64,000 bases of DNA from Candidatus Wolframiiraptor sinensis (GTDB lineage Archaea > Thermoproteota > Nitrososphaeria_A > Caldarchaeales > Wolframiiraptoraceae). The stretch's first letter is position 1. Each line of letters opens with the position of its first letter. The stretch spans positions 147,548 through 211,547 of the forward strand of contig JALNKA010000001.1 of the NCBI GenBank assembly GCA_023261815.1, written 5' to 3'. The notes under the pieces are model-generated. The model made no database searches and was not told the origin of the DNA. It was given only the letters and a program-made list of their open reading frames with translations. Positions 37,746 to 56,344 of this stretch are shown piece after piece. The position numbers and the translations under genes were made by a program.

Positions 37746-38078
37746 TCATGATTCCTCCAGCCTTGAGCCGCATCCACTGCAGTATAGATAGTCAGACGGA
37801 TTTGCTCTTCCGCATTTGGAGCATATCTTCGTGGAAGGCGCAGCAATTTGTGTAGCTTTTTCTTGGACAGCTGATTTAACTAGAACTACATCTCCGAGAG
37901 CGAGTATTTGAGATGATGGGATTGCCTCTTCCTCTCCCTCTCCCAACTTATCGTATATCAGGACGATCTTTCCCTCTTGGTCGTATCCTATGTCTTTGAC
38001 CTTGCCGAGGCGCACAGCATTATCAGAGATAATGTCTTTACCAACGATCTCATCCCTTCTGAAAAACTTTTTACTCAA
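37746..38078 (-). CDS. PRC-barrel protein with C-terminal zinc ribbon
   Basis: IVGKDII..AVRLGKVKDI, ILALGDVVLVK, CSKCG..N....YCSGCGSRL. Confidence 0.85.
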   Translation of the reverse strand: MSKKFFRRDEIVGKDIISDNAVRLGKVKDIGYDQEGKIVLIYDKLGEGEEEAIPSSQILALGDVVLVKSAVQEKATQIAAPSTKICSKCGRANPSDYLYCSGCGSRLEES

Positions 38079-38533
38079 AAAATCATCACCACTTATTTGC
38101 GGTGATTATGCTCTTCTGATGTTTATAAGTTTCAAAATTGTCCTATAAGAAAATCATGGTTTAGAGAATTAATAATGGATAGAGCATTTCATGATCATGC
38201 AGTCCTAAAACAGGACATTGATTGGTAGGCGGATCCTGCATTAACCAGAGCTATCCCTTTTTGATCGAAGCTGGGCACACTTGTAACCTACATGCCAAGC
38301 TCGCTAGTGATCTTATGATTCCACTTGATTTCCTTGGGAGTTGGAATAATCCATCCCGAGCATGCATTCTCAGCGCTAGGTTCCTCATTCTAATCAAAAA
38401 TTCGCGGGATCATGATGCTTTAGCGGATACATTTTTCGCGGTCATTCCTGTCCTAGCCACGATCGCGGTGTTAAGAGGGAAGAGCAAAGAAAGCTTAGAA
38501 CTCAAGATGAGGATGCAGGGCTTGCTAACGGTA

Positions 38534-39862
38534 TTAATGATGAGTGCTGCTCTCCTTGACTTGGCTCACCATTTCTCTGAACTTTTTTATTTGCTCGTTA
38601 TGATCTACTATGGGCTCGTAGTAACCTCTTATCCTGTGTCTTATCGGGTCATGAATCCTCTCACATTCATGGTCCGTCAGCTCAGGGATGTACCTCTTTA
38701 CATACAGGCATAATGGATCATATTTTTCTGCTTGCCTCACGGGATTGAATATCCTAATCGGCAGAGGGTCTACGCCCACCGAGGCGGACCACTGCCAGTT
38801 GCCCACATTAAGGACCTCATCATAATCTATGAGGTGCTCTTTGAAAAATTCTTCTCCAATCCTCCAATCCACGAGGAGGTCTTTGACCAAGAAGTTGGCC
38901 ACTATTAACCTAACCCTATTGTGAATCCATTTTTCAGCCTTCAGTTGCTTAATGCCGGCATCCACGATGGGATAGCCGGTCTTTCCCTCCTTAAAGGCGC
39001 TAATCAGATACTTGTCATTCTCCCACATGATTCCTCTTCTACGAGGATTGAGCTCCAAATCTCTCATGTAAGGGTATCTGCGCTTTAGGTGGTAGTAGAA
39101 CTCTCTCCAAGCTAACTGCCTCACAAACTCCTCGGAGAATCTCACAGCCCGGTTGAATACCTCCCTCACGGAGACTATGCCGAGGCTTATGTATGGAGAC
39201 AGCTTTGAGGTGCCATCCAAGTAAGGGTAATCCTTGGTTGCGGCATATTTTTTGTAGCTGAATGATTGAAGTCTATGAGAATACCAGTCGGCTCTCCATA
39301 TCCGCTCTTCAGGAATCCTCCAACCATTTCTCTTGCACAGCTCATTCAGGTCCGGTTCGTCTATCTCGACGAAATTATCGGGTGGGACTTCTCCAGCAGT
39401 TTCGGCATTGACGAGCCTTCTCCACTTTCTATAAAACATCGTGAAATTTATCGGGGAGCCCAGGGAGGATGGGTCGGCCAGCAGGTTGTCGATTATCTCG
39501 ATGAGCCTTACGCCACTTCTTCTACAGACATCCTTGATCTCCTGAACCAATGCGTCTTCATGCCATGATAAGGGTGATGCCGTGTAGATCGCGTCAAACC
39601 TATATCTCCCCAATAAGTGCTCGAATGCTTCACGCGTTTTATCATAGAGCACATGTAGCCTCATTTTAGAACCTAAATTTCTCAGGGCGTCCAGAAGAAA
39701 TATGAAGCGCGGGTCGTCGAAATTCATCTTTCGATCCCTCAGGACTTCAGGATCTATTACAAAGACTGCCGCCACTTTATCGGCCTTAGATGCCGCCTCG
39801 ATTAGCGCCTTGTTATCTCTTATCCTCAGATCACGCCTGAACCAGTAGAGAACCCTCATCAC
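38534..39862 (-). CDS. phr: Deoxyribodipyrimidine photolyase
   Basis: WFRRDLRIRDN, TSKLSPY, LAWREFY, GKTGYPIVDAG, HNRVR, DYD..N.GNWQW, RIFNP. Confidence 0.95.
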   Translation of the reverse strand: MMRVLYWFRRDLRIRDNKALIEAASKADKVAAVFVIDPEVLRDRKMNFDDPRFIFLLDALRNLGSKMRLHVLYDKTREAFEHLLGRYRFDAIYTASPLSWHEDALVQEIKDVCRRSGVRLIEIIDNLLADPSSLGSPINFTMFYRKWRRLVNAETAGEVPPDNFVEIDEPDLNELCKRNGWRIPEERIWRADWYSHRLQSFSYKKYAATKDYPYLDGTSKLSPYISLGIVSVREVFNRAVRFSEEFVRQLAWREFYYHLKRRYPYMRDLELNPRRRGIMWENDKYLISAFKEGKTGYPIVDAGIKQLKAEKWIHNRVRLIVANFLVKDLLVDWRIGEEFFKEHLIDYDEVLNVGNWQWSASVGVDPLPIRIFNPVRQAEKYDPLCLYVKRYIPELTDHECERIHDPIRHRIRGYYEPIVDHNEQIKKFREMVSQVKESSTHH

Positions 39863-40775
39863 CCGACCTCCCTAGGGTTATTAAGCGCATTACCTCATCA
39901 CCCCTAAGCTCTTCGAGTAGCCTTGAAATAGCTTTCTCCTTTTTCTTCGCCTCCACGATTATGTCTATCGCCCGCTCCCCGAGAAATAAGGAGATCAGAT
40001 TTTTGAAATCTCTTACTTCCACGTAATCTCCGTGCTCGCCAAAGCGGTGAGCTCGTTGTGGTGCTGATGACAGGTGAGTCTCGGGGACGATGTTCCTCCA
40101 AGTGGAGACCAGCCTATCCATGCTGAACTTCGACGGGTTTAGCGTATGATGGTAATAATCGAGGACCGCTGGGAGGCCGAGCGATTCAGATATCTCTATC
40201 ACCTCGGACATCGTGTAATGTCTCTCATCATTTTCCAGCGCGAGCCTTCTTGTAAGCCACTTATTGTTTTCTATCGTTTCCTCAAACCTCTTGAGGGCTC
40301 TCATTTTATCACCGTAAACTCCCCCGACATGTACCACTACGAGGCTCTCATCCCCCAGACCTAAAGTGTCTAGCACCCAGAAGTGATACCTCAACTCCGC
40401 TAAAGACCTCATTATGACGTTCTCGTTTGGACTATTGAGCACCACATATTGCCCCGGATGCATAGTTATCCTGATGCCGTAGTCTCTCACTCTATCTGCC
40501 GCTTCCCTCAAGATTCTCTCGATCGCCTTAAACCACCCTCGATTGAAGCGCGTGTGAGATGCGAATGGAATGAAATTGGAGCCCAGTCTAAATATCGTCA
40601 AGCCCATTCTCCTAGATAGATCTAAGAGCTTCATAAGATCATCCAAATTCCTCTTAAAGACTTCTAGTAACCTATCCTCGCTCAGGCTGCGGAGCTTTAT
40701 CCTATGATTCGTGGACAGCCTGTTATCGCTCGTCGAGCAGAAGAATCCAAGCCCTACTCTCAGCTTGACGACCAC
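39831..40775 (-). CDS. uvsE: UV damage endonuclease UvdE
   Basis: FRLGS..IPFASH, RITMHPGQYVVLNSP, HVGG.YGDK, LALENDE, DYYHH, HLSS, VEAK.KE. Confidence 0.93.
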   Translation of the reverse strand: MVVKLRVGLGFFCSTSDNRLSTNHRIKLRSLSEDRLLEVFKRNLDDLMKLLDLSRRMGLTIFRLGSNFIPFASHTRFNRGWFKAIERILREAADRVRDYGIRITMHPGQYVVLNSPNENVIMRSLAELRYHFWVLDTLGLGDESLVVVHVGGVYGDKMRALKRFEETIENNKWLTRRLALENDERHYTMSEVIEISESLGLPAVLDYYHHTLNPSKFSMDRLVSTWRNIVPETHLSSAPQRAHRFGEHGDYVEVRDFKNLISLFLGERAIDIIVEAKKKEKAISRLLEELRGDEVMRLITLGRSGDEGSLLVQA

Positions 40776-40840
40776 GTTCTCTGTGCGTGAGAAGCAATCT
40801 TAAAAGTTGAGCGCTTAAATTCATTGGGAATGGGTAAGAA

Positions 40841-41788
40841 GTGGTGAGGCATCCCAGGCCCAGAGTGGTCGTGAGCGAGTGTCTTGGCTTCAGGCCCACC
40901 AGATACGATGGTAACATTATCTACGATGAGATCGTTGAAGTCCTGAAAAAATTCGCTGATTTGATCCCAGTGTGCCCTGAGGTCGGAATAGGGTTGGGAA
41001 TTCCCAGGAACCCCCTAGTGCTTACGAGAAACGGGGATGATGTCTGCCTAGTGGATACTAAGACTGGGGAGGATTTTTCACGCCGCATGAATGAGTTCGC
41101 CCATTCATTCATAGCCGACCTTAAGGATGTTGATGGCTTTCTCATGAAATCCAAGAGCCCATCTTGTGGGGTCGGCGACGCGAAGGTCTATGGAAAGGGT
41201 TGGGCTGTTGTCGGCAGGTCAGACGGCATTTTCACAAAGCTCATGCGAGAGACCTTCCCACTCTTGCCGATTGAAAGCGAGAAGCGTCTGCTGAAATACG
41301 AGATAAGGAGGAACTTCTTCACAAAGATCTTCTCGATAGCCGACCTCAGAGAGACCCTTTCGGGGGCCAGGATGGGGGAACTCGTAGAATTCCATCGGAG
41401 GAACAAGTACGTATTAATGCTGTATAACCCGCATCTTTTCAAGAAGCTTGGCAGGCTGATGGCTGAGAGGGATCAGAAGGAGCCGCAGGAGTTGAAGAGA
41501 GAGTACGGTAGAGCTTTCCTAGAGGCCCTTTCCAGAAATCCGGGAAGAGGCTCATACGCAAACGTCTTCATGCATCTCTATAGCCACGTCAAGGAGAATT
41601 TGGTTGAAAAGGAGAGGAAGTACATATTAGCCCTCATAGAAGGGTATAGGATGCGGAGAGTTCTCCTGAAGACGCTCATAGCGTACTTCAGGGGATTCAT
41701 ATACAGGCTGGGAAATGAGTATCTGGCAGAGCAGAGATTCATAGACCCGTATCCCGAGGAGCTGGAGCAAATGCGCGAGGACGAGTAA
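40841..41788 (+). CDS. DUF523-DUF1722 (YbgA/TudS-RudS-like) Fe-S desulfidase
   Basis: VSECLG...RYDG, PVCPEV.IGLG.PR, KSKSPSCG, GIF; FH..NKY.LM, YL.EQ....PYP. Confidence 0.9.
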   Translation: MVRHPRPRVVVSECLGFRPTRYDGNIIYDEIVEVLKKFADLIPVCPEVGIGLGIPRNPLVLTRNGDDVCLVDTKTGEDFSRRMNEFAHSFIADLKDVDGFLMKSKSPSCGVGDAKVYGKGWAVVGRSDGIFTKLMRETFPLLPIESEKRLLKYEIRRNFFTKIFSIADLRETLSGARMGELVEFHRRNKYVLMLYNPHLFKKLGRLMAERDQKEPQELKREYGRAFLEALSRNPGRGSYANVFMHLYSHVKENLVEKERKYILALIEGYRMRRVLLKTLIAYFRGFIYRLGNEYLAEQRFIDPYPEELEQMREDE

Positions 41789-41843
41789 ATGCATTTTGAA
41801 AACCCCGGCGCCCCGGAGCCTTAACTCCAGCCTTTTCCAAAAC

Positions 41844-42620
41844 TCATCTTTGGCAATTCTCGCAGACGAAAGTTTTCCTGTTTATGGGCTTCTGCCTGTA
41901 GAATTTAATGGGGTATCCGCAGATCATGCAGAAACCGCTGAACCTATTATATACGTATAGCATGTCCTTTATACTCCTTCCCCGAATCTTAAGCTCTAGA
42001 AATTGCCTGCTCAACTCCCTCGTAAAGTGAATTATCTTGCGCACCTCTTCTCGAGATAGATCTCCCACCCTCCTTTCGGGATCAACGCCCGCTCTGAAAA
42101 GGATCTCATTTCTCAGAATATTTCCTATCCCTGCTACAACCGATTGATTGAGCAACACGATTCCAATCTTCTCATCCTGAAATCTAATAATGTTCTCGTA
42201 TGCACGCTCTTCATCCCATTCATCACTCAGCGGATCAGGGCCCAAGTCGAGCTTCAACCGCTCCAGAATGTGGTCTCGTGGACCGACCTCCACTATCGGT
42301 GCATTATAGACGGCAATCTTCCTGTTATTCCCGATGAGCATCAATCTAATCCTGTTCATGGGCTTGAGAAGCGACTCGCCCGCCTCGTATACGTGTATCG
42401 TGCCATACATCATTAAATGAACTCTAATGACCACATCGCAGTCGAAGAAGAATAAGATGTTCTTGCCAAGCGAATCCGATTTAACGAACCTCCTTCCAAC
42501 GATCTCTTCAACGGGGACTAAAACCTTCCTAGATCTCACAAAAACCTCCCTGATGCTTTCGCCGGAGAACTTGTTGCTAATCTCAATGGCATATGCTTTA
42601 GCCGTTGGCCCCTCAACCAC
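41844..42620 (-). CDS. Fpg/Nei DNA glycosylase with N-terminal Val
   Basis: GTG start gives MVEGPTAK; GKN, HLMMYG, LGPDPL, LLNQSVVAGIGNILRNEILF (H2TH), C-terminal C4 zinc finger. Confidence 0.9.
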   Translation of the reverse strand: MVEGPTAKAYAIEISNKFSGESIREVFVRSRKVLVPVEEIVGRRFVKSDSLGKNILFFFDCDVVIRVHLMMYGTIHVYEAGESLLKPMNRIRLMLIGNNRKIAVYNAPIVEVGPRDHILERLKLDLGPDPLSDEWDEERAYENIIRFQDEKIGIVLLNQSVVAGIGNILRNEILFRAGVDPERRVGDLSREEVRKIIHFTRELSRQFLELKIRGRSIKDMLYVYNRFSGFCMICGYPIKFYRQKPINRKTFVCENCQR

Positions 42621-42802
42621 GCTGGAAATCGGGATCACCCTAAACTTAAATCTAAAAACACAGAGCCGAAAAGAAACGTGGAGACGGTAGAAGTGGAGCT
42701 CGCATGTAATAATTCAATGCTGAATCAAGGCTTTATTTCTCGATGTGGTCCTTTAGAAGAATCCGAATATTTAAATAAGGCTAACCATAAAATGTCGCTC
42801 GC

Positions 42803-43588
42803 ATGATATCAATCAACTCAAGTTTCTTGAGATTTCTGAACATTTTAACTTATGCTCTCATGATCATTGTAAACAGACTTGCTGGCGGAACCACGATTAT
42901 TGGCGGTAAAACTACTGCCCAGATTTCTGATACAAACCCGACGCTGATAACTCCGGCTGGATGCACCTTCTCCATATGGGGTGTCATATACATTTTACTC
43001 GGAGTGTTCGTTCTTTATCAAGCATTGCCAACTCAGCAGTCAAGAGAATACGTGGACAGGATCGGCTACCTATTCTCAATCAGCAACTCGCTGAATGTCC
43101 TCTGGATCTTTCTATGGCAGTTCGAGCACCTCGCTCTCTCTGTCATAGTCATCTTCTTGCTGCTCGCCACTCTGATCATGATTTACCTCCGACTAGAAAT
43201 TGGAAAGTCTCGCGCGCCGTTGCGCGAAAGAATCGCCTTTCATGTTCCTTTCAGCGTCTATTTGGGGTGGATAACCATAGCCTCCATAGCAAATGTGGCC
43301 ATAGCTTTGGTTTCAGCCGGCTGGAGCGGCTTCGGAATAGGCCCGGAAATCTGAGCAGTGACGGCGTTGGTGGCCGCCTTGCTGATCGCACTGAGGGTTG
43401 TGATGGCGAGGAGGGATCTCGCATATGGATTCGTGGTGATGTGGGCCTTAATAGGGATAGCCGTTAATCATGGCGCAAATCAAGCCATCGTAGCCGTAAC
43501 GATGATAAGCGTCACCATACTCGCCATAATCTCAGCCATCGTAACTCTCTTAAAAGTAAGACACATCAATAAAGTCGCCTCATTCTGA
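42803..43588 (+). pseudogene. TspO/MBR-related membrane protein, in-frame TGA at 43352-43354
   Basis: ITPAG.TFSIWGVIY, LNVLWIFLWQ, FSVYLGWITIASIAN, D.AY..V..WALIGI. Confidence 0.75.
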
Positions 43589-43624
43589 AGAAACTGCCCA
43601 CTTTAAAATATCTTGAGCAGTCTG

Positions 43625-43850
43625 CACGGTAAGGAAGTTCTTCGGGGGCTCGCGGCTAAAGATGGATGCTAAGGATGGTAAGTTTGTGATCGAGGTTATT
43701 AGAGATCCATTCTTGCCGGCTTTAGAAGAGGCCCAAGTTCGGCTCAACAGCATTCAAGCAATTCTAGGAAGAATCCGAGAAGATGCAAGAGGAGATGTTT
43801 CATGAAGAAGATATTCGCTGAACTCAACATATCTCCTCCCAATATTGGGC
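43625..43850 (+). pseudogene. Degenerate AbrB-type vapB and vapC start
   Basis: KDGKFVIEVIRDPF...EESEKMQEEMFHEEDIR with frameshifts, overlapped by MKKIFA. Confidence 0.4.
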
Positions 43851-44413
43851 ATTTCAGTCAATGGTGTCGATAAGATTTTACAAGTGTTAGGGGGTCTTTA
43901 TAGATCAAATGTCATCGAAATATACTACTTGAGATAATGGGTAAGCTGAGTAAAATGAAGCATGATCTGGGCATTGTGGAGGATGGGCATTGGCGAGGAA
44001 CCAGAGATAAAAGCGCTGGTCAAGTTCTTGGAAAGAGTCGGCGAGAGGGCGAGTGCAGCAATTTTAAAGGATGAGTTTTCTGAAAACTCAGAATGGACGA
44101 AGATCTTGACTGCCAATGAATGCAGAATGCCAATTAACTGCTTCCAGCTCTAGCAACCAGATCCTGCAATCTCATACTTTCGTCAATTACCTTTAATTCT
44201 TTCTGAGGAATCGAGGTGATTTTCGAACTTTCCCTGATGGACAAAAACTCGCGTATGGGTCTTGAGTTTGCTGAAGGCAATCTAGCAGCTAGTCTGTTTC
44301 TTCTTCGAAATCTCCATTTTCATTACCACACGGACCTGCAATATTGCCGTCATCCACCATTATCTCTCTTCAGACCATTACTCTAAGTACCATTAATTGG
44401 TTATCTACGTAGC

Positions 44414-44848
44414 CTAGAATTGAGAATTAGGATGCGAAAGTATTGTTATTCCTATCTTCTCTAGATAATTCTTTAGCTTGAACTGATTTTTATCTAGAGT
44501 AAGTAGGGCTGAACCGGGTTTCCCTGAAACCGCTATTAATAAGTCGATGTCGTAAACGGTCTCTCCGCTTAGCAACACCTCTGCTTTTATCTCAGATGCG
44601 AGTCTTATTACCTCTTTGTCGACTTCATATATTGTTAACCACTTTAAAGCTTCATCAAGCCATGCAAGCTCTCTTGCGTCTCCATACTTCTTCCATAAAT
44701 AAAATGCTCCAATCATTAGCTCGTATTCTGTTAATCTACTTATCCCTATATCTTCTATCCTATCTTTTAGAGATTCTAAAGTTCTGCGTGCCTCCGGCTC
44801 TCCTTTCCTAAGTGCTATTAGAAAGCTCGTGTCGAGGAGAAGTCTCAT
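44414..44848 (-). CDS. vapC: VapC PIN-domain toxin
   Basis: LLDTSFLI, EYEL, IDLLIA, LLTLD. Confidence 0.9.
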   Translation of the reverse strand: MRLLLDTSFLIALRKGEPEARRTLESLKDRIEDIGISRLTEYELMIGAFYLWKKYGDARELAWLDEALKWLTIYEVDKEVIRLASEIKAEVLLSGETVYDIDLLIAVSGKPGSALLTLDKNQFKLKNYLEKIGITILSHPNSQF

Positions 44849-45062
44849 GGGTCCTCGCCCTAAACTCAGCTTTTACTTTCTTTATCACCTCTAGCATTTC
44901 ATTTTCGTGCCCTGTGAGGTAACTCGAGAGGGACAGAAGCCTCTCGATCCTCAGCGATACATTAGATGTGATAAGATAATTTATGATCTCCGAAAAGGAT
45001 CGTTTACCCTTTATCCTTTCTAACTTCTCATACACTTCATCGGAAATCGTTATCGTTTTCAT
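44808..45062 (-). CDS. vapB: VapB antitoxin (DUF217-like)
   Basis: MKTITISDEVYEKL..IKG.RSFSEII. Confidence 0.88.
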   Translation of the reverse strand: MKTITISDEVYEKLERIKGKRSFSEIINYLITSNVSLRIERLLSLSSYLTGHENEMLEVIKKVKAEFRARTHETSPRHELSNST

Positions 45063-45965
45063 GTAAAATACACTATACACAAGAATATATAAGATTTTCT
45101 ACTTCCCCAGCTGAATTCTCTCAGAAGCATGGAGCTGCTAGAGGACTATAAGCGAGACTCTGACGCGTATATTAAAGATTATGTTTTGATCATCCGTTGC
45201 TTGCATTATATTTAGCGTTAGCGCGATCAGAGGAGACCTCTATTAAATTAACGTTATTTGATTCTCATCAAGAGGCTGCCGAGAAGCTTGATATTCCCAC
45301 ATTTGTATCAACTATCGATTCGCATAAGTAGTCTAAACATCTGCCTTTCATTCAGGTCGTCTTAAATTCTAAATTAAATCATCTCGAATTTTGAGATCAT
45401 TCATTTTCGCTAAAGTCATAAGTCTCGGGTCCTAGTACACTTTGAAGCGACATAAAGAGACTAAAAACTGAAAGAAGGGACAAGCGAATTAGAGTATATA
45501 GGAGCTATTAAGATGAAAAGGACTGAAATATCATGAAAGGCTTTGTGAAATAATAAAAAAAGCTGAAAAGGGTAACAGTACGAATTGCAGGAGCTTAAAT
45601 GTTATTACGAGTTCTTGGCTCCTATTCTCATTAATTGTTGGAGATTTGATGGGTGGCTATGTAACTCATAAAACAATGCACACCCCTATAGAAAAATCTC
45701 TGAATTCACAATGAGCTGGATTGCTGGCGTAACAATAACATGGTTACCCGTCATCAGAAGATTACAAAGGTGCATCGAGGAATTAAAAAGATTGAAAGAT
45801 AAGATGCCGCTCTTGGAAGGGAAAGGCTGAATGTTAAAGTTTTTCTTAAAGAGATGCAACCTATCTTGAGAACCTCTTGCACAGGTTGGAATCTTGAGAG
45901 CGTATGATCCCGGAATTTGAAAACTTTATTATTCGCTATTCAATTATTCTGGCTGTCAGCAAGCT

Positions 45966-46175
45966 ATGGTTATAACTGCTTTGGTTAATGTTTTGAACTT
46001 TCATCATCCGCATGTTCAATCGATATTTAATGAGGGGTTGTGGGGTTTCCCTGAGGATAAGCTAGGGATCAATAAGAGGAAATGGGCGCTATTGGAAGTT
46101 GGTGGAGAGGTATTACTTTATGGCGAATATAAGGGAGTTAAGGGTATTTGGTTTCTTTGCAAGATTATCGATAAA
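45966..46175 (+). pseudogene. 5' part (EVE/PUA-like domain) of a nuclease gene split by inversion
   Basis: GLWGFPED..INKRKW..LEVGGEVLLY...GVKGIW..CKIIDK, ends at the left breakpoint. Confidence 0.7.
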
Positions 46176-46292
46176 GGCCTTGGAGAGAGCACCTCTTCTA
46201 AAGCCGTACTTCTCGGCAACGTACCTCCGGAACTTTTCAGCTAACCATTTTGGAAGCTCAACCTTTATCACCTCAACATTCTCTTCGCTCAA
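46176..46292 (-). pseudogene. 5' part of RHH antitoxin, inverted away from its 3' part
   Basis: TTG SEENVEVIKVELPKWLAEKFRRYVAEKYGFRRGALSKA; TATA TTTATAT at 46327-33 (minus strand). Confidence 0.72.
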
Positions 46293-46673
46293 TTTTGATC
46301 CCAAAAGTACTTTAGTACTAAAGACCATATAAACTTGCTGGAACCCCTTGAAGCAAAAAGGAAATAGTCTTCACGCAATGGATTCTCGAGATTCATAAAA
46401 GCCGTATTATTACAGGCAATAGGGAATAAGCATGAACCTCTAGTAAGTAATAGCTGGATCCAAAGCTTTCTAGATGTATGAAGCAAGGAATGAATATTCT
46501 CGACCGGTCTTATTTCAAAAATTCTCTAGCATCACATCATGATCTTGAAACTCACCCCTTTCTTGTCCTCTGACCATACAAGAGCCCCGCAAATTATCTC
46601 AAAGCTTTAAGTGCAAGATTTTTCCTCGAAGTAGTCAAGAATACTAAATGCTGAAAGGTAAGCTGACCGCACC

Positions 46674-47370
46674 TCAAACTAGCTTGAGCTTTGTTTCAAG
46701 CTCCTTGATCCTTCGCTTCTCCTCATAGTATTCCTTTATTTCCTTCCAAGAGATTATCCTGAAAATGTCTTTCAGCTCATGGAAAGAGCCTTCTATCCAT
46801 TTCTTCACTTCAGCAATCTGATTGTCGTCAGTTACTAGAACTGGTATTGAGTTCCAAAAGATCAAAGGCATGCTTGAGCTTGCTTAAGGATTCGAAAAGA
46901 TTTCCTCCAAGCTGAATTTCAAACACCACTGAGGGAACACTCTTGGGAGTTCTCTTCCAGACCACGTCGAGCCTTTTATTCTCCAACGGGTATTCTTTCT
47001 GAGGAAATCTATTCTGAATTAAGCCGACTTGATAGATTATCTCTTTGATCTTTTCATGATCGGGTTTATCAACGATTATTCCAGTATTTCTGATGTTCAA
47101 TTCTTCTTTCATCCGCTCAAAGATTCTATAGTCATATGATACATAGTGTCTTCTTTCGTCACCAAAGAGTATTAATGACCACCTGTCGGTTTTCGCTTTG
47201 AAGATTCTAACACCGAATAATGGCACGAGCTCCTCTCTTCGCAGCGGCTTTATCTTATCAAGTAGCTCCAGATCAAGCTTTTCGTAAGGCGAAACAGCTC
47301 TGAGCTTTACCTGCCAGGGATAACCGGTTGGATTTTTAATCCAATAATTCACCGGAGAACGAGATCCGAA
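46674..47370 (-). pseudogene. 3' part of EVE-like/PD-(D/E)xK nuclease; extra base at 46856-59
   Basis: YW...TGYPWQVKL, then KEYPL...RLDVVW...VFEIQ..GNL..SL.KLKHAFDL|WNSIPVLV. Confidence 0.7.
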
Positions 47371-47532
47371 TTAGCAGATATTATCGAGAGAGAGCTCGGA
47401 ACTGGATGGAGCTCAGGTTCCGGTAATGTGAACGCAATAGTAGGTCTAGGCTTATTATCTGATTATGAATGGTGGGGTGAAGATCTCGTTGAAGCGCTCA
47501 GAAGGAAATACAGTTTACCTGATAGATGCTAA
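47371..47532 (+). pseudogene. 3' part of antitoxin
   Basis: LADIIERELG...VNAIVGLGLLSDYEWWGEDLVEALRRKYSLPDRC*, overlapping the vapC start. Confidence 0.7.
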
Positions 47533-47908
47533 TGTACTCCTCGAGGTCCTTTACAAGAGGAGCCGTTGGGAGGAATCATATAAGTTATTGAACAAAGTCA
47601 AAGAGGGCTCGATAAAAGCATTGATGCTGCATTTCGTGATTCACGGGATCTCAGCGATACTTGGAAAACCTGATTTAGCGGCTAAGCCATTAGCCGAAAT
47701 TCTCTCATGGCGTGGTCTAACAATTGTAGATCTATCCGTAAGCGATGAACTTACTGCATGTGAAATAGCAAGCAGGCTAGGTCTCGATTTTGATGATGGA
47801 TTGCATTACCACTTCGCGAAGACCAGGAATTTATCCATCATAAGTTTTGATAAAGATTTTGATAACCTTGATATTAGAAGAATTGAACCACATGAGATCA
47901 CAGTTTGA
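47489..47908 (+). CDS. vapC: VapC PIN-domain toxin (currently cut off from its promoter and antitoxin)
   Basis: YLIDANVLLE, LDFDDGLHY, ISFDKDFD; SD GGGGTGA before TTG. Confidence 0.87.
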   Translation: MKRSEGNTVYLIDANVLLEVLYKRSRWEESYKLLNKVKEGSIKALMLHFVIHGISAILGKPDLAAKPLAEILSWRGLTIVDLSVSDELTACEIASRLGLDFDDGLHYHFAKTRNLSIISFDKDFDNLDIRRIEPHEITV

Positions 47909-47976
47909 AAAGCGTAGTTTGGCACCATAGTTCTGTAGTTAATGCTGCATTACAGGGGCTGCTGATCTGGTGCTTT

Positions 47977-48369
47977 TTAAATGATTATAGCCTCTATGTC
48001 CAGATATTTTGCTACTTTTTCAAAGTCCCTATCCTTTGTAATTATTTTATCGATTCCGTTATGAAGCATTATTCCAAGGATCATTATATCGAATTCGTTT
48101 ATCTTTTCACCGATTTTCTCGAGTTTTTCATGGATCATCGCGGCCTTCTCCGCGGAATACGAGTCGAGAGGTAAGACGTCGAAGCTCCTGAAGAAACGCG
48201 TGAATGCCATTTCCTCGGATTTGCTCATCCTCGATCTCCTCCTGAAGATTTCGTATACCGTTATCGCCGTCGTCTTCGCGCCTTCACGATCGATCTCCGG
48301 TAAGAATCTTTCCACGGTGCTTGGTCGTCGAAGTAGCTCTATCACGAACGACGTATCTATGAGGAACAT
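47977..48369 (-). CDS. vapC: VapC PIN-domain toxin
   Basis: LIDTSFVI, TVYEI, FDIMI, ITKDRDF. Confidence 0.9.
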   Translation of the reverse strand: MFLIDTSFVIELLRRPSTVERFLPEIDREGAKTTAITVYEIFRRRSRMSKSEEMAFTRFFRSFDVLPLDSYSAEKAAMIHEKLEKIGEKINEFDIMILGIMLHNGIDKIITKDRDFEKVAKYLDIEAIII

Positions 48370-48587
48370 TGGGAACTACCCCTCACTTTTATCGACCTTC
48401 TTGATTCCAAAATCTCCTTATCTAACTCGTCTAACCACTCTGAGTCCTTTAAAATACCAGCAAAATCCCTCAAGCTTGGGCGTCTCTCCTCCAGAATCCT
48501 TTCCAGCAAATCGGAGAAGCTTTCGCCTTCCTTCTTCAACTTCACGAGTTTTTCATAAACTTCCTCTCTTATCGTTAATGTTTTCAT
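48357..48587 (-). CDS. vapB: VapB antitoxin (DUF217-like)
   Basis: MKTLTIREEVYEKL..LKKEGESFSDLLER; 14-bp palindrome ATGTATTAATACAT at 48586-99. Confidence 0.9.
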   Translation of the reverse strand: MKTLTIREEVYEKLVKLKKEGESFSDLLERILEERRPSLRDFAGILKDSEWLDELDKEILESRRSIKVRGSSQCSS

Positions 48588-49213
48588 GTATTAATACATT
48601 TATAAACTAACTAATAAATATCTCTACCCACTATGAATGTGGCGTCGAGGAGGAGCATTTAAACGGCCCCTCACTTGCATCAAATCTAGTACACTCCTCT
48701 ATGGGAGCATCAAGTTTTGGGATTACAGGCTTCATCAGGGTCTTTATCTGCCCCTCCGCCCGTAGCGCCATTATTAGAGCGTGAATCACTTCATCCATCC
48801 CAGCAATGACCTCGTGAACAGTCTCTCGACAGCTTTTCAGTAATCCCTAGCATTCACGTTGATCTCAACGGGATGAAATATTAAAAAGCATCTGATAAAT
48901 AAACAAAACCAAAAGTTATGGGCTTCCGTAGGGATTATAGAAATTTTGTTGCTGTGCTCCTTATATACTCCATGCTTCTAGGATAGCTACTCATAAGATT
49001 AACAATTTCCCCCAGCCATAAACAATGTCAACCACCGCCTCAAATTCGTCGTACTTCATTCTCGCGAAAGATGCCTGGTGTTCAATGTCTCTCCTCCGAC
49101 GATCTTGGACTTTTATTCCTCGTTGACTCCATCTCGATCTCCTCGGGACCTCATCCATTTACTGGGGGTTGTACTTGATAGCATTGGAGAGCTGATTATG
49201 GATGGTTGTAATT

Positions 49214-49570
49214 CTAAAGCAGATAGCCTCCTTCAGGGCCTACTACTTCGAGTTTTCCCGTCAGAAGGTTCGGTCTCAGGCCTAGTGTTTCCAATGCGAA
49301 GATCCCTAATAGGGGTGTTGGGACATCGAGTTCAGCAACGAAGACTGGGCCCTTTCTCCCCTCGACTTCGGCCTCGGCCACAAATAGTCTAGCCTTTAGC
49401 CTTCTCCTATCAGCCAATGTGAGCTCCACCTCATAGCCGGTCGAGGTTAATTCGAGCTCCGAAATGGTCTTGGGATCCAACACTATGTAGGATGCACCGG
49501 CATCCACTAAAGCCCTGACAACCTTTTCCCTCCTCCCCCTGATTATGATATCGCAGTACACGTAACCCAC
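49214..49570 (-). CDS. Clan AA (retropepsin-like) aspartyl protease
   Basis: ALVDAGASYIVL, LADRR, PLLG..ALE.LGL. Confidence 0.8.
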   Translation of the reverse strand: MGYVYCDIIIRGRREKVVRALVDAGASYIVLDPKTISELELTSTGYEVELTLADRRRLKARLFVAEAEVEGRKGPVFVAELDVPTPLLGIFALETLGLRPNLLTGKLEVVGPEGGYLL

Positions 49571-49816
49571 AAGATAGTACGCTGTCCACGCGAATTTAAG
49601 CATTGAAAGCAAGTTTTTCAGAGAGTTGTCAAATAATCTCAATTTTTTAGCTAACCTGATTGCTTTCTTTTTGCTAATCACTTTCTCATTCTAGCGAGCT
49701 CTTCATCGTCTGTTCTTTAATAACTCGAAAATCAACGCGTTTTGAGCCAAAGCAGGTAAATGTGAATTTAGGAGGAATACTGCTTTAATTCACTATCCCT
49801 TCTCCTCATGAGATTT

Positions 49817-51973
49817 TTATTTTTCATTTTTCAAAATCACGCTCAGAATTGTTTCGCTCGCTCTTTTCAATAACTTAATATATTCACTGCTATCGTAAAT
49901 TCCGGGATTTAATATTAGCGGAATTGTTCTTAAGGGTTCCGGCCCAGCAATTATGTATGCCACTTCTTGACCAGGTCTTACTCTAAGACCAGCTTTTTCA
50001 AGTTTCTTGATGGTGATCGCTCCTCTCGACTTGACTAGGTACTCATCTGGATATTTGGTGACGACTCGCCTTACTGCCAAGTCTCCGATGTTGACTTCGC
50101 CCAATATTATTTTCCTCACATACTCGTTGTAAATTTCTAGGCATTCTAGGGCCTTGATCCTCAGCTCTTCGGGAGAGTTTGCCTCAGCCAACTTTTTCAA
50201 CATCCTTAACTGCATATCCTTGACTATCTTCGGACAATCTCTTCTCCTAGCTTCGATGCCGCGATACTTTAATCTGCCATCTTGGAAAACCCCGAAATAT
50301 CTGCTGTTTACGGGCTTATTGGGATTTGCTCTTGAAGGCAGGAAAGCAATCCACTTGTAGATGCCCTCATAGCTCAATGGTAATCCTAGTTCTCCTTCGA
50401 TTTTCTTGACAAGCTTAAGGTAATCTACCTCCGAAGCATCTTCCTTCTTAACCCATAGGGAATCGACTATTCCGTGAATCACTTTGAAGCCCATTTTCTC
50501 AGCGATCTTGACAGCTTTCAGGAGGGTGGCCCTGGCTAAGGCGCAGACCGCTAGGTGAGCCTCCCTCGAGCCAAATTTCGCCTTCTTAAATCCGAGATAT
50601 CCGAAGGACGTGACTAGAATCCATTTTAGAGCATCCGACCTTTTCTCGTAGATCTTCTTAAGCTCCAGGTCATTGACTTCTCTGGAAAGCAGCTTATAGC
50701 TTAGTCTCTTTTTGAGAGGAAGCTCAATGGTCCTAGGAACGACCCCCCTCCACCGCTTGCAAATGTGAAACCCTAAATCGGGAACTTCGTATCCATTATT
50801 TCTGCAGCATTCACAGTTTACTGTCTCGCCAGAGATGTTATATCTTAGCATGAGCAAGGGATAAAGACTCTTGAAGTCTATCTCGGCAACATTCCAGTGG
50901 ATTCCGATTCTTGCATCTAGGATCAAGCCACCTCTATCAGCTCTAATAAGAGTACGCCCATCCATGTAAACCGGTTTGCTGGGGATTCGCGGAAGAAGCA
51001 CTCCAAGCTTGTATGCCTGATAGTATTGGAGGGAGGACATGCATGATCCTATAGTGCGTCGAGCTGCATCCTGTATCGGGATTCTGGTAATTCTGGCCAC
51101 CTCGATGACACCCTCTAATCCCGTCTCCTCGTAAAGCATTGAGTTGGAGGAATCTAAATGAAGTCTCCCCCTGAGCTTTATCCCTTTGAACCTATGATAG
51201 ATCCTGCCATAACTAAAGTACGAGGATGATCTTATCCGGATCCTTCTCGGGTCGCTTAATCTACCGAGTCGAAATCTAACGCGGTTCAACTTGGCGCGAT
51301 AGTGAAGGTATGGGATGAGGAAGGAATCTCCGCGATCCGTTATGATAATGTCCAGATCAAGCTCGTCTAATAATTTGGTGAGCGTCTCTAAGATCCGGTC
51401 CTCCGGTCCATCCAATGCTATCTCCTCGTTCTCGTGCTTCACTATGATCTTCTTGAGGCGATCTTTGAAAGATGGTGTTATGCCGCCCGCCTCGAGCTCG
51501 GCTTCTAGGAAGCCCATTTTCAGCCAGCTCAAATCATAATCTAAATCCTCGACCGAGTCCAAAGCCCTGATCTCTCCATCTCTTATTTCGACATAGGCAG
51601 TTGGGTAAAGATCATGTTCGTAGAGGAATTCCTGCATTGAAGGCAAATCAACATTGTAAACTTGGAATTGACCATGATTTCCCATATCTAGAATCAGCTT
51701 AGCAGTCCGCCTCTTCCCCCCTATCGGAACATTGACCTCTAGGACGGTCTCGAGAGGCGCTCCGGGTCTAGGCGACCTTTCCACAAAATTCACTCCATAT
51801 ATTCGTGAGAGGATTCCTGCTAGTTCGATCAATCTCTCTAATGATCCTCTAATGTAGACTTTTGGAGACCATTTTAGCTCATGGAGGTGAACGCTTCTTC
51901 TGAGATCCTTTATCCATAAACCGATGCTGCTGTTTCCAATTGGGTGGAGGTCAAGGAGCCAGCCTCGCGTCAA
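49817..51973 (-). CDS. polB2: Family B DNA polymerase, PolB2 (Dpo2-like) group
   Basis: DFKSLYP, LKWILVTSFGYLG, HGIVDS in place of YGDTDS, RYFG, GIEARRRD; degenerate exonuclease. Confidence 0.88.
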   Translation of the reverse strand: MTRGWLLDLHPIGNSSIGLWIKDLRRSVHLHELKWSPKVYIRGSLERLIELAGILSRIYGVNFVERSPRPGAPLETVLEVNVPIGGKRRTAKLILDMGNHGQFQVYNVDLPSMQEFLYEHDLYPTAYVEIRDGEIRALDSVEDLDYDLSWLKMGFLEAELEAGGITPSFKDRLKKIIVKHENEEIALDGPEDRILETLTKLLDELDLDIIITDRGDSFLIPYLHYRAKLNRVRFRLGRLSDPRRIRIRSSSYFSYGRIYHRFKGIKLRGRLHLDSSNSMLYEETGLEGVIEVARITRIPIQDAARRTIGSCMSSLQYYQAYKLGVLLPRIPSKPVYMDGRTLIRADRGGLILDARIGIHWNVAEIDFKSLYPLLMLRYNISGETVNCECCRNNGYEVPDLGFHICKRWRGVVPRTIELPLKKRLSYKLLSREVNDLELKKIYEKRSDALKWILVTSFGYLGFKKAKFGSREAHLAVCALARATLLKAVKIAEKMGFKVIHGIVDSLWVKKEDASEVDYLKLVKKIEGELGLPLSYEGIYKWIAFLPSRANPNKPVNSRYFGVFQDGRLKYRGIEARRRDCPKIVKDMQLRMLKKLAEANSPEELRIKALECLEIYNEYVRKIILGEVNIGDLAVRRVVTKYPDEYLVKSRGAITIKKLEKAGLRVRPGQEVAYIIAGPEPLRTIPLILNPGIYDSSEYIKLLKRASETILSVILKNEK

Positions 51974-52226
51974 GCTTCATCCCCATCTTAAGCTCTCTCT
52001 CAAGAATCCTCAATCTCTCCTCATGCGACAGTAATCCTGACATGGTAAGCAGGTCGAAGGTATCCCGTTCTGGGTACATAGAGGCGGCGTGAGCATAGCG
52101 GTAAACTTGGCCCACCAAGCTCTCGAACGCCTCGCGCTCCTCCCTGAACAAAGCCCTCCTGAAATTCTTCCATCGGCAAAGCTCAAGCTCGAGCCTCTGC
52201 CGATATGTCAGCGTATTTCTTCCCAT
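51951..52226 (-). CDS. Small PolB2-associated protein (arCOG07300-like)
   Basis: MGR...YR......W..FRRAL...E..AF..L; overlaps the polB2 start. Confidence 0.78.
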   Translation of the reverse strand: MGRNTLTYRQRLELELCRWKNFRRALFREEREAFESLVGQVYRYAHAASMYPERDTFDLLTMSGLLSHEERLRILERELKMGMKLDARLAP

Positions 52227-52633
52227 TTCTGTTCATGCGTATCGTAAGTGGAGATTAAAAGGATGGAGGAGGTAGGTGAAAGTGCGAGCAAATAGGCTTC
52301 ATTTGAGGGGAGTATTGATGGCCAGTTTGGCCAGAGTCTGGAGGACAACATAACTCGCATCAGGAAGAGCATTTAACATATGAAGTCACCTTAATACGAT
52401 TCGACTTACTTTAACCGATAAACTTCACTTGAATGAATTCCTCAGCAACTGACGAGCCCCTCATCTCGCTTAGAGCTTTCGCTCAAAGGTCGCGAGATCC
52501 AACCTAACTTCTACTAAAGCTCATGGTTGATTATGGGAGGAGAAACTTATCCGGGGATGTGTGTATCGCTGGAATGACAATTGCTCTACATTTACTAGAT
52601 AATTTTATATACTAGTTACCTTGTCATTCTACT

Positions 52634-52879
52634 ATGGAATCAGAAGGAGAGATCGTCAAGGTTACGAGAAATTTTCAGGTTACGATACCAAGCCGGATAA
52701 GATCTAGAGCCGATATCAGGGAGGGTAGTTTTGTAAGAGTAATTTACGATGAGGTTGAGGGCGTGATTAAGATAATTCCGCTGAAGAGAAAGAGATTGAC
52801 AGTGACCCTTGGCAGGCAGATCATGGTAGAGGAAATAGAGAAGACCGTTGAGGAGATGCTCGATGAGACTACTTCCTGA
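52634..52879 (+). CDS. vapB: AbrB/MazE-type antitoxin
   Basis: VKVTRNFQVTIPSRIR...IREG; upstream IR GAATGACAA/TTGTCATTC. Confidence 0.9.
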   Translation: MESEGEIVKVTRNFQVTIPSRIRSRADIREGSFVRVIYDEVEGVIKIIPLKRKRLTVTLGRQIMVEEIEKTVEEMLDETTS

Positions 52880-53267
52880 TACTAATGTCCTGGTCTATGA
52901 TACTATAGAGGATAGTCGTCATCATAAGGAGGCAGCGAAGATCATAGATTCTGCAGGCGAGATCTTCATGCCGCTGATAGTCATCCATGAATACATTTGG
53001 GTTATGCTGAAGCTATCCATAAGCCCTGCCATAATATCCGCAAAGATTCATGAATATCTTGAGGATGTAAGAGTGAGACCTATTCATGAATCCATTAAGG
53101 TGATGGATGATGCGCTCAGAATGCTCGAGGAAGAAAAGGCCCCTACAAAGGACATCAACGATTATGTCATCCTCTCCCTAGCACTAAACAATGACCTGAC
53201 ACTTGCAACCTTCGACAAAGAACTAAAAACAATAGCCTTAAGAAAAGGCGCGGCTGTCATTCCATAA
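52863..53267 (+). CDS. vapC: VapC PIN-domain toxin
   Basis: LPDTNVLVY, IHEY, INDYVI, ATFDKEL. Confidence 0.9.
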   Translation: MRLLPDTNVLVYDTIEDSRHHKEAAKIIDSAGEIFMPLIVIHEYIWVMLKLSISPAIISAKIHEYLEDVRVRPIHESIKVMDDALRMLEEEKAPTKDINDYVILSLALNNDLTLATFDKELKTIALRKGAAVIP

Positions 53268-53577
53268 CGCGCAGTCCCATGCTCACTCGTGACAATGCTC
53301 ACACCATATTAAAGATTTGAAAACATATTGCATGATTTTTACACCTCTTTATGGTTAAAAATTCTCTGGCTTTAGTCTTCGGGATAATGTATCAAGCTGG
53401 ATGTTAGAATCAAGGAATCGATATAAGGAATAGTGGTGAGCATAAGGGAAGCACTGCCTTAGCGACTTTGAAAGCCTACGTTATGATTTTAATTCCTTAA
53501 TAACCACTATCCTGGTAAACGAGAACAATCACGCCCATTTTTATGGATCTGATAACCATCACAGTCCCTCAACATCG

Positions 53578-53925
53578 TCATTCTTGATTGGCTTGAGGAC
53601 TTCTTCTTTCCAACCACTCCACGATATATTTAATGAAGGCATTGAGGTCTGAGAGCTTTGCCTGGAGAAGGATGTATGGTATGTCTTTGTAGCGTTCTGG
53701 CCTTTGAAGCTGGAGGGAAGAAATGATCTCATTTCCAACATCTATCATGCACTCAATGGAAACTTGAAGATATCTTTCAACGGCTCCTCTTATCTTGAAG
53801 TCGTTTACGAGATCCTCCATGGAAACCGTCTGCAGTTCTTTCAGGAACCCTATGTATTCCCTCAGCTTGCTAAGCTTCGCTATAACTAGGCTTTTCTCTA
53901 CGCTAGGACCATTTTCGTGAAACAT
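53578..53925 (-). pseudogene. DUF86 HEPN (HepT-like) toxin with in-frame deletion of the RNxxxH motif
   Basis: AVERYLQVSIECMIDVGNEII...PERYKDIPYILLQAK|LSDLNAFIKYI; no R-x4-6-H present. Confidence 0.75.
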
Positions 53926-54383
53926 TCTTCATACCTCTCCATGGCTCTTTTGAAATCGAGATATTCATCCTCAGCTTTTGCCTCAAATTCTATCCTGGCT
54001 CTCTCATCGCTACAATGAATCACTATACCATGTTTTATTACCTGATGCTTGAGTAATGGGGGAGCCGTGTTTAGAATTATCAAATCTACTTCGCCACTCG
54101 ATGCCTGTGATAATTTATTAACTAAGTGTAAATAATATTCGAGTATTTTATGGGGTGGAGTGGATAAAAGAACAGCTACGTCTACGTCGCTTTTGACGGT
54201 TTGATTGCCCCTCGCATATGACCCAAATAGATAAGCAACTAATACTTCACGCTCTCTTTCGAAGAGGGCCCTTAAATTTCTAATTACTTGGTCTTCCAAC
54301 TCTCCCCCTTCCCCCAACTGAATCTCCATGGAATGATTTAACTGTTGACCAGTCGCTAGATGCATCACGACCGATAAAGACAT
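53898..54383 (-). CDS. MntA-type nucleotidyltransferase antitoxin
   Basis: AYLFGSYARG....SDVDVAVL, VDLIILN.APPLL...V...G. Confidence 0.9.
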   Translation of the reverse strand: MSLSVVMHLATGQQLNHSMEIQLGEGGELEDQVIRNLRALFEREREVLVAYLFGSYARGNQTVKSDVDVAVLLSTPPHKILEYYLHLVNKLSQASSGEVDLIILNTAPPLLKHQVIKHGIVIHCSDERARIEFEAKAEDEYLDFKRAMERYEECFTKMVLA

Positions 54384-54503
54384 ACCTCATGATCCATTAT
54401 TTACTTGATTGTTAGCGATGTGAATGTTAAAGATAGTTCTGGAAAAATTCAAATCGCAACGTTTCTAAGAAATTAGCACCTATTACGTTTTTTCTCCCTA
54501 TTC

Positions 54504-55873
54504 ATGCTTATATTGCTGGTATTGCATGGAATTTTCAGCTCAGAGCATCTATATCTATTGATGGTATTGCCGTTGATAGCTTCATTCATCGTTCTTGTTG
54601 CATTAATTAGGGCGAAAGAGATGGGCAGAAAAACTTTAACTTTCATTAAAGTAGCTTCTATCCTCTCACTAGCATCCGGAATCGCCTTCTGTTGCGCCAC
54701 TAAATTATCAGCATTCAACATCATTTTGGTTCTCGCGTTTATCTTACCAGTCACAATAATTGGTCTCCGTTTAAGATACATAATCCAGCCATTAATTGAA
54801 TATCATTCGTCAGAAAGTGTGTTGAAGGGCGCTCCCATTAGCAAAATTACATATGCAAAGATAGAATATCATCATGGGCCATTAAATGGACAATGTACTA
54901 TTTCACCAATAGATATAGTCGCAGAGCCGCTTATCTCAGGAAACGATATTTCCACAACTCTAACATGTAGATTGAATTGCAAAATGGTTAGATTGCATGA
55001 AGGATGCGGACTCTTGTTAACTTTGAAGTTGATAGTTCCGTCAAGTTATTTAGGAGAAGATATTGAAGAGGAGCTCGCGTTTCATGGCATCAACATCTAC
55101 ATAGATAGCACTCATTACTCTTCGATAACATTCTATGAGGGCTCTGAAGGCGCTCCAGTAAGACCGACCTCAGTAACGGTAATGAAGCCTGCGAAAATCA
55201 GCTTTCTATACTTCAACCTTTGGTTACCGGCATTTCGGAAGGATCACATATGCTTGCGGCGATTTTAATAGATCGCTCTGGAGGAACATTATTTGCAGAT
55301 GTAACATCATTCGAGATATTTGAATGGATGCAGGAGGGAGAGGTTTGGCGCCCGTCCCGATAAAAATAATTTCTCATAAACTTGACCAAGTTATGAGGGA
55401 TTTAATGCATTATCATTATAAGATGGGGAAGCTGGACTCCGTGCAAGAAGTTACCCGTACTGTTTTCGACAACTTTATCAACAATAGAAATAATGGAGGT
55501 TGATTCTGAAGAATATTTCATAATGGCGATCGAATTTAGCTTGAGTGTGTTAGATTACAACAACCTATATTCGATTAAAATTTATGTTGATGGTGAAGAA
55601 TTTTATAAAATCCTTTTAATGGAAGCTTTACATCTACTCAAGGATCATAGATACATTGTAAAGATACCACATTTGCCACCATTAACACCAAGGAAAGGGA
55701 AACATTCAATCCTATTAAAGTTGCTTAAGCAAGACTTTCTTTTAAAGAGAGAGCAAACGCTCTCCACGCGCATAATCCAGTTCACATATCCCCCTGCCAA
55801 AAAACATGAAGTAAAAAGACGAAAGCGAAAAAGGAAATTGAGGAAGAAGTCTCCTAAAGAGGTCATTAAGTAA
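54504..55873 (+). pseudogene. AT-rich hypothetical membrane protein locus, probably fragmented (ORFs 54504-55268 and 55493-55873)
   Basis: N-terminal TMs; alternative frames stay open across much of 55230-55490. Confidence 0.4.
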
Positions 55874-56344
55874 ACATCCCCTTTACACTTAAACTTTCTT
55901 AAAATATTCTTGGAAAAATTAGCCCCAGCTCAAGAGTTCAGCCAATATACTTTTCGGTATTACCATAATCAAGATCACCTTCCGACATTTTATCCATATT
56001 CCGCCGTTCCCTTCAACGGAATCTTTTTATTGAGACAGCTTCGCGCTTCACCTGATTTCCCGAATTTTCTCTGGGCTCCATTATCTCGCGTATCTGCCGA
56101 CTTATACTAGCTGAATTCTTCTTAAGAGCGAGCAATAAATGGAGGATGATAATCAAGATTCTAACGTACAAGCCAAGAGTGATGGTGCTTGATTTAGGGG
56201 GTGGGTGGGGGCTACAGATGTGGAATATTGCATTGGGTGCTTGATGAGGCTGATGAACCTCAGGGGCTACGTAGTCTCTTGATAGGTTTGCACATTCCGG
56301 AACCCAATGCTTATAAAAGGCGTGGAGAGATTAATAAGGGTAGA

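Follow-up and report, generated by a model that had tools for sequence, protein, structure and literature searches.

The stretch of 64,000 nucleotides analysed here, referred to as the window, covers C9:147548-211547 of G000, a metagenome-assembled genome (MAG; 1.18 Mb, 33 contigs, 92.4% complete) of Candidatus Wolframiiraptor sinensis, and contains an inverted segment that interrupts two genes. Very probably, an illegitimate and now fixed inversion made pseudogenes of a gene for an EVE-nuclease fusion and of the antitoxin gene vapB, leaving the toxin gene vapC promoterless. Reverse-complementing 46176-47370 by script yields frames that stay open across the two junctions without the gain or loss of a base, as a preliminary description of this DNA, made from its letters alone, had claimed. 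One long frame then runs from 45966, and a second from 46328 through 47532. The left junction falls exactly between nuclease codons 70 and 71, and the right junction between vapB codons 51 and 52. This continuity of frame does not come about by chance, because the corresponding intact proteins are present in public data. The coordinates of all parts are collected in Table 1.

Intact proteins from public data, mapped onto the window by tblastn, reproduce the nuclease reconstruction. P0017, an intact protein of 301 amino acids (aa), aligns with three window pieces at 298/301 identical residues. Its first 70 residues match the 5' part of the gene, which still lies downstream of its own upstream region. 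Residues 71-241 correspond to 47370-46858 on the minus strand (169/171 identical), and residues 242-301 to 46856-46677 on the same strand (59/60 identical), with the frame offset by one base. The surplus T of the preliminary description is thereby located in a run of four T, one more than the intact reading calls for, and it truncates the reading frame to a 174-aa open reading frame (ORF) at 46828-47352 (-). Two species representatives of the same order, G037 (L002 1282-2175) and G040 (L003 1321-2214), carry uninterrupted 297-aa homologues that share 57-58% identity with the 180-aa piece from the window and are colinear across both the junction and the frameshift; the 5' part of the window gene is colinear with them as well.

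At the right junction, residues 52-103 of the 104-aa antitoxin P0127 map to 47371-47526 on the plus strand (51/52 identical), and residues 1-51 to 46328-46176 on the minus strand. P0127 and P0137 are the closer intact 104-aa antitoxins. Contig C32 of genome G021 carries an intact 92-aa antitoxin gene overlapping a vapC that is 95% identical to the window's. The locus on this contig, L021, also preserves the un-inverted right junction at the DNA level: window 47372-48638 corresponds to L021 1576-308 (93.0% identity) and window 46177-46786 to L021 1579-2184 (86.4% identity), stretches that are neighbours in L021, at positions 1576 and 1579, and lie on opposite strands of the window. Colinear intact loci, which the preliminary description had suggested looking for in related genomes, thus exist for the nuclease (G037 and G040), for the antitoxin (G021) and for the DNA across the junction (L021).

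Three observations concern the junction sequences themselves. A 10-bp palindrome, TTATCGATAA (46165-46174), ends one base before the left breakpoint. At 47366, five bases inside the right end of the flipped segment, a codon differs from the intact allele by a Glu-to-Gly change; the residue, two positions from the left junction, is Gly in the window and Glu in P0017 and P0020, and belongs to the 3 residue differences from P0017. This change might be a repair scar, or chance. An eight-base match, ATTATCGA, lies near both junctions; it forms a direct repeat in either arrangement, cannot drive an inversion, and is taken as chance.

Public runs containing this stretch are all labelled hot-springs metagenome. 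Comparison over 44800-48800 of Logan contigs, which are not raw reads, from four runs of four studies reveals the flipped form in three of them. Run X1, the probable source of the window, yields one contig identical to it. Run X2, from another study, yields a 2544-nt contig (45998-48541; 1 difference, 0 gaps) that spans both junctions and the frameshift, and run X4, from a third study, a low-depth 213-nt contig (46067-46279; 0 differences) that spans the left junction. Gaps in the coverage of X2 and X4 are given no weight in this comparison. Across NCBI and Logan sources, the flipped-form 174-aa fragment P0057 is found on 16 contigs, and the 71-, 63- and 59-aa start variants of the chimeric vapB (P0122-P0124) on 5 + 3 + 9 = 17. 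Independent assemblies contain the flipped form, which is no artefact of assembly. An assembly or amplification chimera, with the flipped arrangement not existing in cells, would suit a window drawn from a metagenome-assembled genome of 33 contigs, and inverted chimeras with short microhomology do arise in whole-genome amplification. Such a chimera would, however, require two reciprocal base-exact artefacts, and the bridging contigs of X2 and X4 as well as the recurrence of flipped-form products speak against it; we give it next to no credence.

The un-flipped form is found in the fourth study. In run X6, a 1936-nt contig (record 15) joins 46175 to 47370 on opposite strands, which corresponds to an un-flipped nuclease gene, and shows 26 differences from the window (~1.3% divergence, representing a ~98.6% identical strain). 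Over 46810-47345, the X6 depth of 12.8 comes from this un-flipped contig alone, with no flipped-form contig there. Intact P0017 is present on 5 contigs (NCBI, JGI/IMG, Logan and ENA sources). The longest contig measures 6555 nt for P0017, for the VapB protein P0127 and for the VapC protein P0147, and this shared length points to a single contig with the colinear intact locus. When metagenome contigs were scanned for an intact locus nearly identical to this one, the 5 loci recovered were all distant, with 47-53% identity in the nuclease module. Ancestral and derived alleles both occur in hot-spring public data, with the un-flipped nuclease gene in the same species.

The sequence relations suggest the following course of events. 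All on the plus strand, the ancestral locus would have begun with the 301-codon EVE-nuclease gene and continued, after 345 bp of spacer holding the vapB promoter, with vapB (92-104 codons) and an overlapping vapC. One illegitimate recombination in the G000 lineage, with 2-bp microhomology at the breaks, very probably flipped 1195 bp; the flip split the nuclease gene and vapB and created two short chimeric ORFs. Nuclease codons 1-70 stay behind their own promoter, fused to 22 antisense codons, and vapB codons 1-51 behind the vapB promoter, now leftward, fused to 20 antisense codons; vapC is preceded only by the promoterless 3' part of vapB. The nuclease +1 frameshift and a private Leu-to-Pro change in VapC are extra lesions. 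The rearranged allele would then have been fixed in a nearly clonal lineage represented in several hot-spring samples, while a sister strain of the same species kept the colinear locus. We infer that the event was unprogrammed and irreversible, that the nuclease and VapB products are both probably lost, and that vapC, left without a promoter, is presumably silent. A split antitoxin and the loss of the vapC promoter had already been proposed in the preliminary description, in keeping with the promoter region lying within the flipped segment and pointing away from vapC. The one-step disarming of an addictive module, one of the two readings offered there, agrees with this anatomy and is a reasonable conjecture.

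That description had also raised a phase-variable defence switch. In a programmed and reversible system of this kind, a site-specific recombinase would flip the segment, toggling the nuclease and vapBC together; both orientations do occur within one species (X6 versus X1, X2 and X4), and serine-recombinase exchange is formally compatible with breaks that have a 2-bp overlap. The crossover sites, however, are dissimilar beyond these 2 bp. Compared as inverted sites (40 bases, shifts of ±8), the junction pair reaches at best 13/39 matches, and random 40-mer pairs from the window average 14.0, with 82% reaching ≥13. A repeat finder returned 44 pairs of inverted repeats, and none of the 25 longest flanks the junctions; the AA/TT microhomology without long inverted repeats, as initially described, therefore stands. 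The intact serine recombinase suggested as a search target did not turn up: the 92.4%-complete G000 gives no match to Resolvase (PF00239) or to Phage_integrase (PF00589, E ≤ 0.01), with PF00239 matching 12/14 and PF00589 14/14 of the control genomes, and none of the 10 neighbouring ORFs scanned gives a recombinase match. An Xer-type recombinase may lie outside the assembled sequence, or its divergence may hide it from the search.

Two further properties of the locus argue against switching. A working nuclease is not regained by re-inversion alone, because the flipped allele is also frameshifted. For the nuclease-bearing strain, each run shows one orientation (the flipped one in X1, X2 and X4, the un-flipped one in X6), and orientation tracks the strain background (~1.3% divergence), with no within-population variation in the contigs of the 4 runs. 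A little room is left for switching because contigs drop rare variants, and we regard it as very improbable.

Several points nevertheless weigh against a one-off, fixed inversion that inactivated the locus. The evidence comes from contigs only, and a minority opposite orientation in X1 or X2 is compatible with the data. G000 is 92.4% complete, and a recombinase could sit in the missing part; the tyrosine recombinase usually expected in archaea is also undetected, which limits the recombinase search. The presence of both orientations within one species is what a switch would predict as well. Finally, the vapC frame is intact and its PIN acidic residues, judged by eye, are kept, so that loss of toxin function is a step we only infer.

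The intact form of the nuclease gene that the inversion split is predicted to encode a type IV modification-dependent restriction enzyme, composed of an EVE domain fused to a nuclease. Its family comprises at least 125 clusters at 90% identity, with most members measuring 290-310 aa and mostly archaeal among the named ones, labelled only 'hypothetical' or 'predicted RNA-binding protein' in their sources. Named relatives of the window proteins belong to MAGs of Nitrososphaerota, Aigarchaeota and Bathyarchaeia. Pfam and NCBIfam searches with the window gene pieces and with full-length homologues gave no meaningful match for the nuclease, and P0017 and the window pieces individually have no Pfam match.

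The EVE assignment follows only from family-level profiles. A 61-sequence alignment profile matches PDB entry 1wmm (PH1033, UPF0310) over the N-terminal ~120 residues (positions 6-121, E 2.9e-6), followed by 2p5d (E 9.6e-4) and the YTH protein 4rcm (E 2.4e-3). Pfam EVE (PF01878) matches 24/61 family members (best E 5.8e-7), and NCBIfam PRK00809 matches 26/61. These matches support the EVE/PUA-like N-terminal domain recognised in the preliminary description. The PADLOC model PDC-M12A gave a weak match (11/61 members, best E 6.6e-4) and is not used.

The C-terminal domain has the appearance of a restriction-endonuclease module and contains invariant D, E and K residues. E196, D205, E221, K234 and K236 are invariant in the 61 family sequences, and in 53 module proteins of other architectures D, E and one K likewise vary little or not at all. 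The domain may be PD-(D/E)xK-like, as initially proposed; however, Q, not K, follows E-x, and the lysine would need to come from the next helix. The C-terminal ~150 residues have no match in the local Pfam library, whose models do not include PF27126, and the family profile found no PDB sequence match for this half. An ESM Atlas model of P0017 residues ~150-301 shows TM scores of 0.77-0.78 to PF27126 NmeDI_C clusters, the closest neighbours there that have a name, and also resembles Mrr_N clusters, a lead only; the available part of the NmeDI paper (PMC2095814) contains nothing specific on the fold of the C-terminal domain.

A full-library HMMER search with the C-terminal half places the module in 407 representative clusters (E ≤ 1e-3), mostly at the C-terminus of 150-525-aa proteins. 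In 53 of 150 listed module proteins, picked for varied length and module position and scanned against Pfam, the partners are Mrr_N (4), DUF1802 (4), EVE (3), winged helix-turn-helix (HTH; 2) and HARE-HTH (1). The recurrence of the module beside DNA readers is in keeping with a restriction nuclease. Elsewhere in the window, a 259-aa ORF at 56201-56980 (+) matches DUF3782 (E 7.7e-27) and PDDEXK_10 (E 3e-19); in tblastn it also aligned weakly with the EVE part of P0017 (39% over 38 residues, E 2.7e-4).

In the intact vapBC allele, the antitoxin gene (L010 1416-1694, minus strand) overlaps vapC (1040-1483, minus strand). A TTTATA hexamer, read by eye, lies on the minus strand of the window at 46333-46328. 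The antitoxin has no Pfam match at E ≤ 5, whether to antitoxin or ribbon-helix-helix (RHH) models or to any other, and its PDB match to the RHH region of a HicB antitoxin is non-significant (E 0.65). Atlas feature matches of 0.94 to clusters auto-named ribbon-helix-helix and of 0.90 to RHH_6 are leads only. In the preliminary description, the gene had been read as encoding a 92-aa RHH antitoxin. Intact 92- and 104-aa antitoxins colinear over the right junction bear out the gene itself; the RHH label finds no support in Pfam and draws on the Atlas leads and the sequence pattern. VapC is assigned by PF01850 (E 2.2e-15; 57.7 bits vs a cut-off of 23.6). A single Leu-to-Pro change sets it apart from P0144, its nearest relative (99%). 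The change lies at alignment column 75, where Pro is present in 3/13 VapC sequences, otherwise identical to the window's over shared residues, and Leu in 10. The substitution may have weakened the toxin ahead of the inversion, or it may reflect later decay.

Table 1. Features of the inverted locus and of its neighbourhood in the window.
Feature	Position	Strand	Remarks
Inverted segment, 1195 bp	46176..47370		Breakpoints ambiguous by 2 bp (AA/TT); other runs have the opposite-strand joints 46175/47370, 46176/47371 and 46177/47372
EVE-nuclease gene, 5' part, codons 1-70 (EVE-like domain, first half)	45966..46175	+	70/70 identical to P0017 aa 1-70
EVE-nuclease gene, 3' part, codons 71-301 and stop	46674..47370	-	Remainder of EVE-like domain and nuclease module
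+1 frameshift	46856..46859	-	Four-T run, three T needed in intact allele; falls between P0017 residues 241 and 242
65-aa ORF	46674-46871	-	From the ORF list
Chimeric 92-aa ORF from inversion	45966..46244	+	Nuclease codons 1-70, then 22 codons antisense to vapB; on 1 contig
Chimeric 71-aa ORF from inversion	46113..46328	-	vapB codons 1-51, then 20 codons antisense to the nuclease gene
vapB, 5' part, codons 1-51 of the 104-codon reading	46176..46328	-	92-codon reading starts at 46292
vapB, 3' part, codons 52-104 and stop	47371..47532	+	Severed from start and promoter; overlaps vapC start
Nuclease-vapB spacer with vapB upstream region	46329..46673	-	Homologous to L021 upstream of intact vapB
vapC, PIN-domain toxin gene, 147 aa	47465..47908	+	Intact frame; alternative start 47489
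Neighbouring intact vapBC	44414..45080	-	PIN and VAPB_antitox
Neighbouring intact vapBC	47977..48587	-	PIN and VAPB_antitox

The locus lies in an islet of low G+C content at 44200-48400 (0.36-0.42 vs 0.44-0.51 in the flanks), with the gene for an Fpg/Nei-type glycosylase (41844-42638) on one side and that for a family B DNA polymerase (49817-51973) on the other. The islet contains three vapBC modules, and 38000-56000 holds no tRNA gene and no obvious integration site. In related genomes of the same family, the nuclease gene has been broken along two different routes. The same-genus genome G002 has a decayed EVE-nuclease copy at L004 (G002:C95) 1283-1974, frameshifted around codon 30. Its N-terminal 29 residues are read in one frame; residues 24-238 are read in a second frame, which ends directly after a conserved K-L-K-H-A stretch, and the last ~60 codons are missing. 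In G021 (L021 = G021:C32, 2075-2185; window 46674-46786), the gene is reduced to its last 37 codons, 86% identical and with an internal stop, followed by unrelated sequence with a 461-aa ORF. An X4 contig matches this form, retaining only the last 37 nuclease codons. L021 covers 6.4 kb and is 86-93% identical to the window though binned in another genus, which may reflect a binning error for G021:C32 or a transfer of the islet. A joint in X6 between 45138 and 46569 on opposite strands (depth 130, shorter side 47 letters), read in the un-flipped order, suggests a form that lacks the nuclease gene in its entirety, along with the region upstream of it.

A match to the C5-cytosine methylase family PF00145 is present in G000 (C33:24551-25462), in 22/24 family genomes and in 1/16 genomes of three sister families, and absent from G037 and G040, which carry the intact nuclease orthologue. 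This distribution could reflect antagonism between the nuclease and methylation in the host, but it is no more than a lead: phylogeny confounds the contrast, very few of the comparisons are independent, and PF00145 also takes in tRNA methylases. The same one-off inversion could, in principle, have been positively selected, removing a costly or self-harmful modification-dependent nuclease and disarming the adjacent addiction module in one stroke. Its anatomy would suit this outcome, with the vapB promoter region inside the flipped segment and the vapC start inside the vapB 3' part, as would the larger number of contigs with the flipped allele (16 for P0057 vs 5 for P0017), the two other breakages and the methylase matches. 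Contig counts, however, differ from population frequencies, and the intact allele lives in strains ~98.6% identical to G000. The frameshift or the VapC Leu-to-Pro change possibly came earlier, making the inversion neutral, and drift in a clonal lineage is an equally good explanation; positive selection is unlikely in our judgement. A more specific form, in which the inversion was selected for removing a nuclease in conflict with host cytosine methylation and the same event allowed escape from toxin-antitoxin addiction through uncoupling of the toxin from its promoter, is likewise unlikely. If true, the repeated independent loss of the nuclease gene in a methylase-bearing family would form a wider pattern.

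The locus, for which we continue to prefer an illegitimate, fixed inversion, can be set beside four known systems. Invertons have inverted-repeat flanks and dedicated invertases and are reversible within a population; here, no repeats or invertase were found, each sample shows one orientation, and an extra frameshift is present. The likeness lies in segment ends within coding sequence and in a protein set that changes with orientation, as in the bacterial intragenic invertons that expand coding capacity according to the available part of their description (bioRxiv 10.1101/2023.03.11.532203).

Among type IV EVE enzymes, the shared features are an N-terminal EVE/PUA-like reader with a C-terminal nuclease module and a neighbourhood of defence and toxin-antitoxin genes; the module here differs in having no local Pfam match, and the gene is broken in G000. 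As far as the available text of the sources goes, EVE-PD(D/E)XK is listed among putative type IV restriction architectures and fast-evolving EVE domains are assigned to defence and toxin-antitoxin settings (Bell, Wolf and Koonin 2020, PMC7641849), the EVE-HNH enzymes TspA15I and VcaM4I have been tested (PMC6765204, PMC7897488), and few PUA-PD-(D/E)XK fusions were found by Lutz et al. (PMC6765204). The EVE-nuclease architecture is thus already known as a prediction, and the ~300-aa family is a candidate for it. The intact allele resembles VapBC systems in having a PIN toxin gene (PF01850) preceded and overlapped by a small antitoxin gene, near two more vapBC pairs. It differs in that the antitoxin has no Pfam antitoxin or RHH match; in G000, the antitoxin gene lies in two pieces and no upstream promoter region is left to the toxin gene.

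Pseudogenes arise by illegitimate, microhomology-level rearrangement in prokaryotic accessory regions. The locus shares with this process its clean junctions, its 2-bp microhomology, breakpoints without a mobile element and a position in a low-G+C accessory islet, and is unusual only in being fully reconstructable, with the ancestral genes and the derived allele all in public data. It represents a clean, ordinary case of defence-gene decay in an uncultured archaeon, and the mechanism is not new. The inversion allele is a useful marker for strain tracking, and the two forms provide a natural allele pair for studying the uncharacterised ~300-aa EVE-nuclease family. Three independent breakages of the same gene, together with the possible link to C5 methylation, may merit a comparative test.

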